A DNA stretch of 64,000 nt, taken from assembly GCF_054482525.1 (NCBI RefSeq), contig NZ_CM137006.1; one strand, 5' to 3'. Position numbers and translations under genes: made by a program. A model generated the notes under the pieces. That model saw only the letters and a program-made list of their open reading frames with translations. It ran no database searches and was not told the origin of the DNA. Positions 272 through 400 of this stretch are shown here, in pieces. Each line of letters begins with the position of its first letter. Position 1 is the stretch's first letter.

Positions 272-319
272 AATAGCCCCTGTAAAATTATGGTTTAGTG
301 AAGCGATCTTAATGAGTAA

Positions 320-382
320 ATATGAACAGCGGCACTGGTCAGGATGAACGGCTTACGGCAGAATATGAACAGATATGAACAG
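320..382. promoter_or_regulatory. torC-torR divergent control region with four tor-box decamers (TorR binding sites)
   Basis: Direct repeats ATATGAACAG (= CTGTTCATAT on the torC strand) at about 320-329, 363-372 and 373-382, plus a degenerate copy GGATGAACGG at about 342-351, between the torC start (271) and torR start (401). This matches the known tor-box architecture. Confidence 0.7.
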
Positions 383-400
383 AATGAGTAAAACCCTCTG

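Follow-up and report, generated by a model that had tools for sequence, protein, structure and literature searches.

Four same-orientation decamers between the divergent torR and torC genes of Escherichia coli match the known TorR operator

The divergent torR-torCAD region at the start of a 64,000-nucleotide stretch of E. coli DNA (the window, meaning the whole stretch analysed) carries four decamers of common orientation on one face of the helix, which almost certainly constitute the TorR operator of this region. Through that operator, which is already known, E. coli TorR activates the genes for trimethylamine-oxide (TMAO) respiration and represses torR; the observation is correct but ordinary. 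The first-pass annotation had listed the array as a known regulatory design; this label is correct, and the box sequences match the published ones. In what follows, the box sequences, their positions and spacing, the neighbouring genes and the conservation come from our own analysis, and TorR binding, the order of affinities, cooperativity and autoregulation are taken from the literature.

The whole window is collinear with the genome of E. coli PCN033, with 6 mismatches over 64,000 bases. Over the first 2.2 kb the identity to PCN033 is 100%, and of 5426 complete E. coli genomes 5419 contain this segment. Translation starts of torC (271, minus strand) and torR (401, plus strand) leave a divergent spacer of 129 bp, from 272 to 400, and the positions of the individual features are collected in Table 1. 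The N-terminus of the torC product was assigned by Pfam to the NapC/NirT-type cytochromes. In TorR, Pfam recognized a Response_reg domain (E = 1.5e-28) and an OmpR-type Trans_reg_C domain (E = 1.4e-17), and comparison with solved structures returned the TorR receiver-domain entry 1ZGZ (E = 3.8e-73). The gene that adjoins the boxes therefore encodes an OmpR/PhoB-type response regulator, as expected of the cognate regulator. Several features further along the window were noted in passing. In K-12, the group 4 capsule genes gfcABCDE-etp-etk presumably lie between appA and cspH. According to the PCN033 annotation, gfcABCDE-etp-etk are absent at the appA-cspH junction of the window (about 7180-7380), where appA and cspH overlap. 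A copy of the IS3-family element IS1397 lies between pepN and ssuB (about 56300-57660), and a match to naRNA4 was found at 56092-56169. At the end of the window (63980-64000) lies ompF, which the near-identical PCN033 record annotates as a pseudogene carrying an internal stop.

Three of the decamers (boxes 1, 2 and 4) are exact copies of ATATGAACAG on the plus strand, and the fourth (box 3) is a degenerate copy, GGATGAACGG, that matches at 7 of 10 positions and keeps the ATGAAC core intact. A repeat finder placed the four ATGAAC cores in register at 322, 344, 365 and 375 and found no inverted repeats at the array. From box 4 to box 1 the start-to-start spacing is 22, 21 and 10 bp, with one orientation common to all four. 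Boxes 1 and 2 are contiguous, and roughly two helical turns separate box 2 from box 3 and box 3 from box 4, which puts them on the same face, as in an operator built of direct repeats. Thus the earlier reading of three perfect repeats and one degenerate copy between the divergent starts was borne out.

To estimate what chance would yield, we used dinucleotide-preserving shuffles of the window, both strands (n = 100). The expectation is 0.12 exact decamers in 64 kb, and none of the 100 shuffles reached four. The tor spacer is also the sole place in the 64 kb where at least three same-strand ATGAAC cores fall within 80 bp. A fourth exact ATATGAACAG is found at 60147-60156, where it is isolated within the pepN coding sequence, consistent with chance. 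When up to two mismatches are allowed, the window yields 51 matches where chance alone predicts 46.9; at such a background level a degenerate box 3 is not callable from similarity alone, and looser scans of the window add nothing. Inspection by eye gave no second box-like partner at a 10-bp distance from box 3 or on the upstream side of box 4 (0 to 4 of 10 matches). The box 3 call rests on its phasing, on the invariance of TGAAC at this position in five genera and on the box published in PMC9239176.

The array agrees with the published TorR operator in both sequence and location. Tor boxes 1, 2 and 4 have been printed as 5'-CTGTTCATAT-3' and box 3 as 5'-CCGTTCATCC-3' (PMC9239176); the copies in the window are the exact reverse complements of these consensus sequences, and they lie, as expected, inside the short spacer of divergent torR and torC. 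In gel shifts TorR bound boxes 1, 2 and 4, and isolated box 3 gave no shift (PMC9239176). The torCAD promoter was bound by phosphorylated TorR (TorR~P) and not by ArcA~P or FNR, although each of these two bound a control promoter (PMC10845959). In genomic SELEX, whether or not acetyl phosphate was added, TorR gave a single peak across the E. coli genome, located in the torR/torC spacer (PMC5934670). Passages of PMC5294996, PMC9436347 and PMC2820520 that cite Ansaldi et al. 2000 describe torR autoregulation as negative, independent of phosphorylation and of TMAO, and exerted via the high-affinity site. The closest comparison is E. coli K-12, which shares the genes, the 129-bp spacer and all four boxes with their spacing. 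Against MG1655 the spacer aligns without gaps and with three substitutions (276, 285 and 317), none of them within the boxes, and the 63-bp array from 320 to 382 is identical. At one of the three differing bases K-12 reads AATGAGCAAA where T317 in the window gives an exact AATGAGTAAA, a repeat considered below. The published binding of TorR to identical boxes, together with the torC and torR neighbours, supports the annotation's proposal of TorR-dependent activation of torCAD; its proposal of torR autoregulation is likewise supported, the sign being negative according to the cited passages of the papers that refer to Ansaldi et al. 2000.

The torC -10 element has been placed within TTGCT(nnnn)AAGAT, with position +48 about 20 bp into the coding region (PMC10845959), and the putative torC start in Table 1 follows from these two statements. 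Box positions relative to this start were reconstructed from the text of PMC10845959; box 4 computes to -30 to -21 from the -10 position and leader length of that paper. TGCCGC, which matches poorly, occupies the place where a torC -35 hexamer would be sought, in keeping with an activator-dependent promoter. A generic scan of 200-480 on either strand returned no sigma-70 promoter or terminator, which is likewise expected for an activator-dependent promoter and leaves the torR hexamers as predicted elements. A Dam site, GATC at 305-308, overlaps the torC -10 (TAAGATC on the torC strand), and GATCTTA is invariant in nine of nine aligned enterobacterial sequences from four genera. A molybdenum-cofactor-dependent, riboswitch-like element has been proposed for the torC leader, starting at +1 and reaching past +48 (PMC10845959). 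Rfam was searched with gathering cut-offs over the whole window and with E <= 1 over 1-700, and neither search gave a family in the tor spacer or leader (including 251-299); the proposed cofactor-sensing leader therefore matches no curated family.

On the torR side, we read the inter-box block CACTGGTCA (332-341) as containing a putative torR -35 element, which would put box 3 inside the spacer of the torR promoter. The predicted torR hexamers together score 8 of 12, under the promoter-scanner threshold of 9 of 12. Both CACTGGTCA and the CA..AT of the predicted -10 are kept across Enterobacterales; the conservation of the block within this order is near that of the boxes (8 of 12 invariant positions). 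Such a placement, deduced from sequence, would fit repression through occupied boxes 1 and 2. Overlap of these two boxes with the putative torR -10 and start would explain the autorepression of torR.

Table 1. Coordinates of the tor boxes, promoter elements and flanking genes in the window.
Feature	Position	Strand	Remarks
torC, 5' part	1..271	-	pentahaem cytochrome, first torCAD gene; ATG 269-271; runs past window start
torC Shine-Dalgarno	277-280	-	GGGG
torC start site (putative)	299	-	an A; 7 nt past the -10; 28-nt leader; from the +48 description and -10 position of PMC10845959
torC -10 hexamer (putative)	306..311	-	TAAGAT; from the text of PMC10845959
tor box 4, promoter-proximal	320..329	-	CTGTTCATAT; about -30 to -21; abuts the expected -35 position
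torR promoter (putative)	336..364	+	-35 TGGTCA 336-341; 17-nt spacer containing box 3; -10 CAGAAT 359-364; start near 371 in box 2
tor box 3, degenerate, low-affinity	342..351	-	CCGTTCATCC on torC strand, GGATGAACGG on plus strand; about -52 to -43
tor box 2	363..372	-	CTGTTCATAT; contiguous with box 1, period 10 bp; about -73 to -64; overlaps putative torR -10 and start
tor box 1	373..382	-	CTGTTCATAT on torC-sense strand, ATATGAACAG on plus strand; about -83 to -74 from torC start; distal half of high-affinity tandem site
torR	401..1093	+	OmpR/PhoB-family response regulator; ATG 401-403
torT	1066..2094	-	periplasmic TMAO-binding protein signalling to TorS; annotation of near-identical PCN033 record
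torS	2177..4921	+	unorthodox sensor kinase phosphorylating TorR; annotation of near-identical PCN033 record

Within E. coli, a 149-bp region containing the array is present in 5417 of 5426 genomes, and among 5416 matching genomes the 63-bp array is identical in 5100, 95-99% identical in 315 and 87% identical in one. That outlier, strain 2020CK-00188, carries the boxes ATATGAATAG, GGATGAATGG, ATATGAATGG and ATATGAACAG and keeps the 22/21/10 spacing; in three of its boxes GAAC has become GAAT. Its tor locus was found through similarity and not through the box pattern. The spacer there is about 82% identical to that of the window, and torS comes immediately after torR, without an intervening torT.

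The tandem decamer that forms boxes 1 and 2 (363-382) varies in copy number from one to four among E. coli genomes. Two copies are present in the window and in the great majority of genomes. One copy is found in RMDEC465, whose spacer is 119 bp, and four in EH2252. Carriers of three copies include UTI89, UM146, NU14 and O121:H19 STEC strains, and at least three copies are present in 80 of 5416 genomes; the carriers look like several unrelated lineages. In UM146, box 3 reads GGATGAACAG. A one-box BLAST query gives no clean count of single-box genomes, because joins of several pieces score three- and four-box alleles at 100%. We found no description of this copy-number variation in the searchable literature.

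We then scanned about 100,000 species, each represented by one genome, for the tandem pair TGTTCATATNTGTTCATAT. The scan returned 54 loci, and in 15 of them, from five genera, torR and/or torC adjoins the match. These tor loci come from Escherichia coli, E. albertii and E. whittamii, Salmonella arizonae and diarizonae, four Edwardsiella, three Providencia and two Grimontia. The other 39 matches, mostly in unrelated taxa and with neither torR nor torC nearby, were treated as chance occurrences. In every readable spacer (11 enterobacterial and that of Grimontia marina) box 3 lies 21 bp from box 2, and box 4 a further 22 bp away, and an alignment of ten sequences contains zero gaps from box 4 to box 1. 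TGAAC at the box 3 position is invariant in all ten aligned sequences, as is ATATGAA at box 4, which lies outside the search pattern. Over the nine enterobacterial sequences of this alignment, invariant positions number 8 of 10 in box 4 and 5 of 10 in box 3; the stretches 312-319 and 383-400 hold 2 of 8 and 3 of 18, and the torC leader 6 of 28. Boxes 1 and 2 are invariant at 10 of 10 positions each, a cross-genus conservation that is partly circular, by construction, since the same pattern had served to find the loci.

The Salmonella enterica torCAD operator resembles that of the window in having four boxes of the same consensus and order, the 22/21/10 spacing, a 129-bp spacer and gel shifts of boxes 1, 2 and 4 by TorR (PMC9239176). 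It differs in its diverged inter-box and flanking sequences, in a TorR about 80-82% identical to that of the window and in lacking the AATGAGTAAA repeat. Identity to the TorR of the window is 85-86% in Edwardsiella and Providencia, compared with the 80-82% of Salmonella arizonae and diarizonae. This order runs counter to the relatedness of the species and, on protein comparison, hints at a possible horizontal transfer of the tor locus.

Could the repeats be a product of chance, or a short tandem repeat made by slippage, with no regulatory role? The variation of the tandem decamer between one, two, three and four copies among E. coli genomes is what slippage would leave behind. However, exact decamers are expected at 0.12 per window, the non-tandem boxes 3 and 4 hold exact offsets in five genera while their surroundings have diverged, and TorR binding and mutational data have been published for the identical sequence. 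Given the statistics and the fixed cross-genus offsets of the non-tandem boxes, we consider an origin by chance or slippage excluded for practical purposes. It is about equally improbable that the decamers serve another OmpR-family or anaerobic regulator, ArcA or FNR, instead of TorR. ArcA-like motifs do overlap the TorR sites, and a weak FNR-like sequence, TTGCT nnnn AAGAT, lies over the -10 (PMC10845959); yet TorR~P bound the torCAD promoter in the same study and neither ArcA~P nor FNR did. In the window, moreover, the FNR-like half-site reads TTACT, not TTGCT, owing to the T at 317, and this weakens the match further.

There is likewise hardly any likelihood that the GAAC/GTTC cores are mainly targets of Dnd phosphorothioation in competition with TorR, a situation known from Salmonella Cerro 87. 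In dnd-carrying Salmonella, DndCDE binds the tor boxes and lowers torCAD transcription (PMC9239176), and GAAC is present in every box here. Such an effect would be an overlay on TorR control and not an alternative to it, and it requires dnd genes, none of which is annotated in the corresponding 64 kb of the near-identical PCN033 record. Assignment of the array to TorR is thus the reading that we retain.

The box array is bracketed by an exact 10-bp direct repeat of a different sequence, AATGAGTAAA, at 311-320 and 383-392. The first copy adjoins box 4 and the torC -10, and the second adjoins box 1. When the non-box bases of the spacer were shuffled 50,000 times, an exact non-box repeat of this length arose in 53 cases. 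The repeat is exact in the window, in E. albertii and in E. whittamii, and matches at 9 of 10 positions in K-12, which has C at 317; it is absent from the Salmonella, Edwardsiella and Providencia spacers examined. The first copy is offset from box 4 by exactly 10 bp and has ATGA in common with the box core, and this pseudo-box beside box 4 was not kept outside Escherichia in the spacers compared. On the torC strand each copy holds TACTCAT, a perfect NarL heptamer (TACYYMT). It seems doubtful that the pair, instead of being a remnant, is a functional extra operator, made up either of weak TorR half-sites or of a site for another regulator such as one recognizing the NarL heptamer.

The arrangement of the boxes suggests how TorR would act at the two promoters. 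In complexes with DNA, relatives in the OmpR/PhoB family form head-to-tail dimers on direct repeats with a period of 10-11 bp. According to the 1995 study of Simon and colleagues and the 2000 study of Ansaldi and colleagues, boxes 1 and 2 reportedly form a high-affinity site covering the torR start, boxes 3 and 4 are said to be low-affinity sites, and the high- and low-affinity sites reportedly need to lie on the same helical face. On this basis, boxes 1 and 2 would serve as a tandem high-affinity site of 10-bp period for a head-to-tail dimer of the OmpR/PhoB type, which TorR would occupy regardless of its phosphorylation, covering the putative -10 and start of torR and so repressing it. Once TorT and TorS sense TMAO, TorR~P would in addition fill the weaker boxes 3 and 4 cooperatively. 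TorR at box 4 may then substitute for the missing -35 element and recruit RNA polymerase to TAAGAT, leading to torCAD transcription.

TorR shares its two-domain architecture with other OmpR/PhoB-family regulators, and its matches among solved structures include KdpE and BasR/PmrA entries. The proposed operator resembles the pho boxes of PhoB and the sites of KdpE, PmrA/BasR and PhoP in its 10-11-bp direct repeats, in the expected head-to-tail binding of winged-helix dimers and in a proximal site that replaces the -35 element. It differs from these operators in the sequence of the half-site and in combining a tight pair with two isolated boxes two turns apart, and, unlike them, its tight pair would also be the site of autorepression. 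In Shewanella oneidensis, studies by Gon and colleagues (in 2002) and by Bordi and colleagues (in 2004) reportedly defined a torECAD operator, TTCATA-N4-TTCATA, bound by the TorR orthologue. It is said to share the TTCATA core in direct orientation with a 10-bp period and reportedly differs in consisting of a single tandem site far upstream, with no box 3 and box 4 array.

Together, these results confirm a textbook operator and indicate that it is recognisable from raw sequence. The 22/21/10 spacing is fixed from Escherichia to a genus of the Vibrionaceae, which fits the published model of cooperative binding on the same face of the helix. Within E. coli, the copy-number polymorphism of the high-affinity decamer could tune the autorepression of torR.
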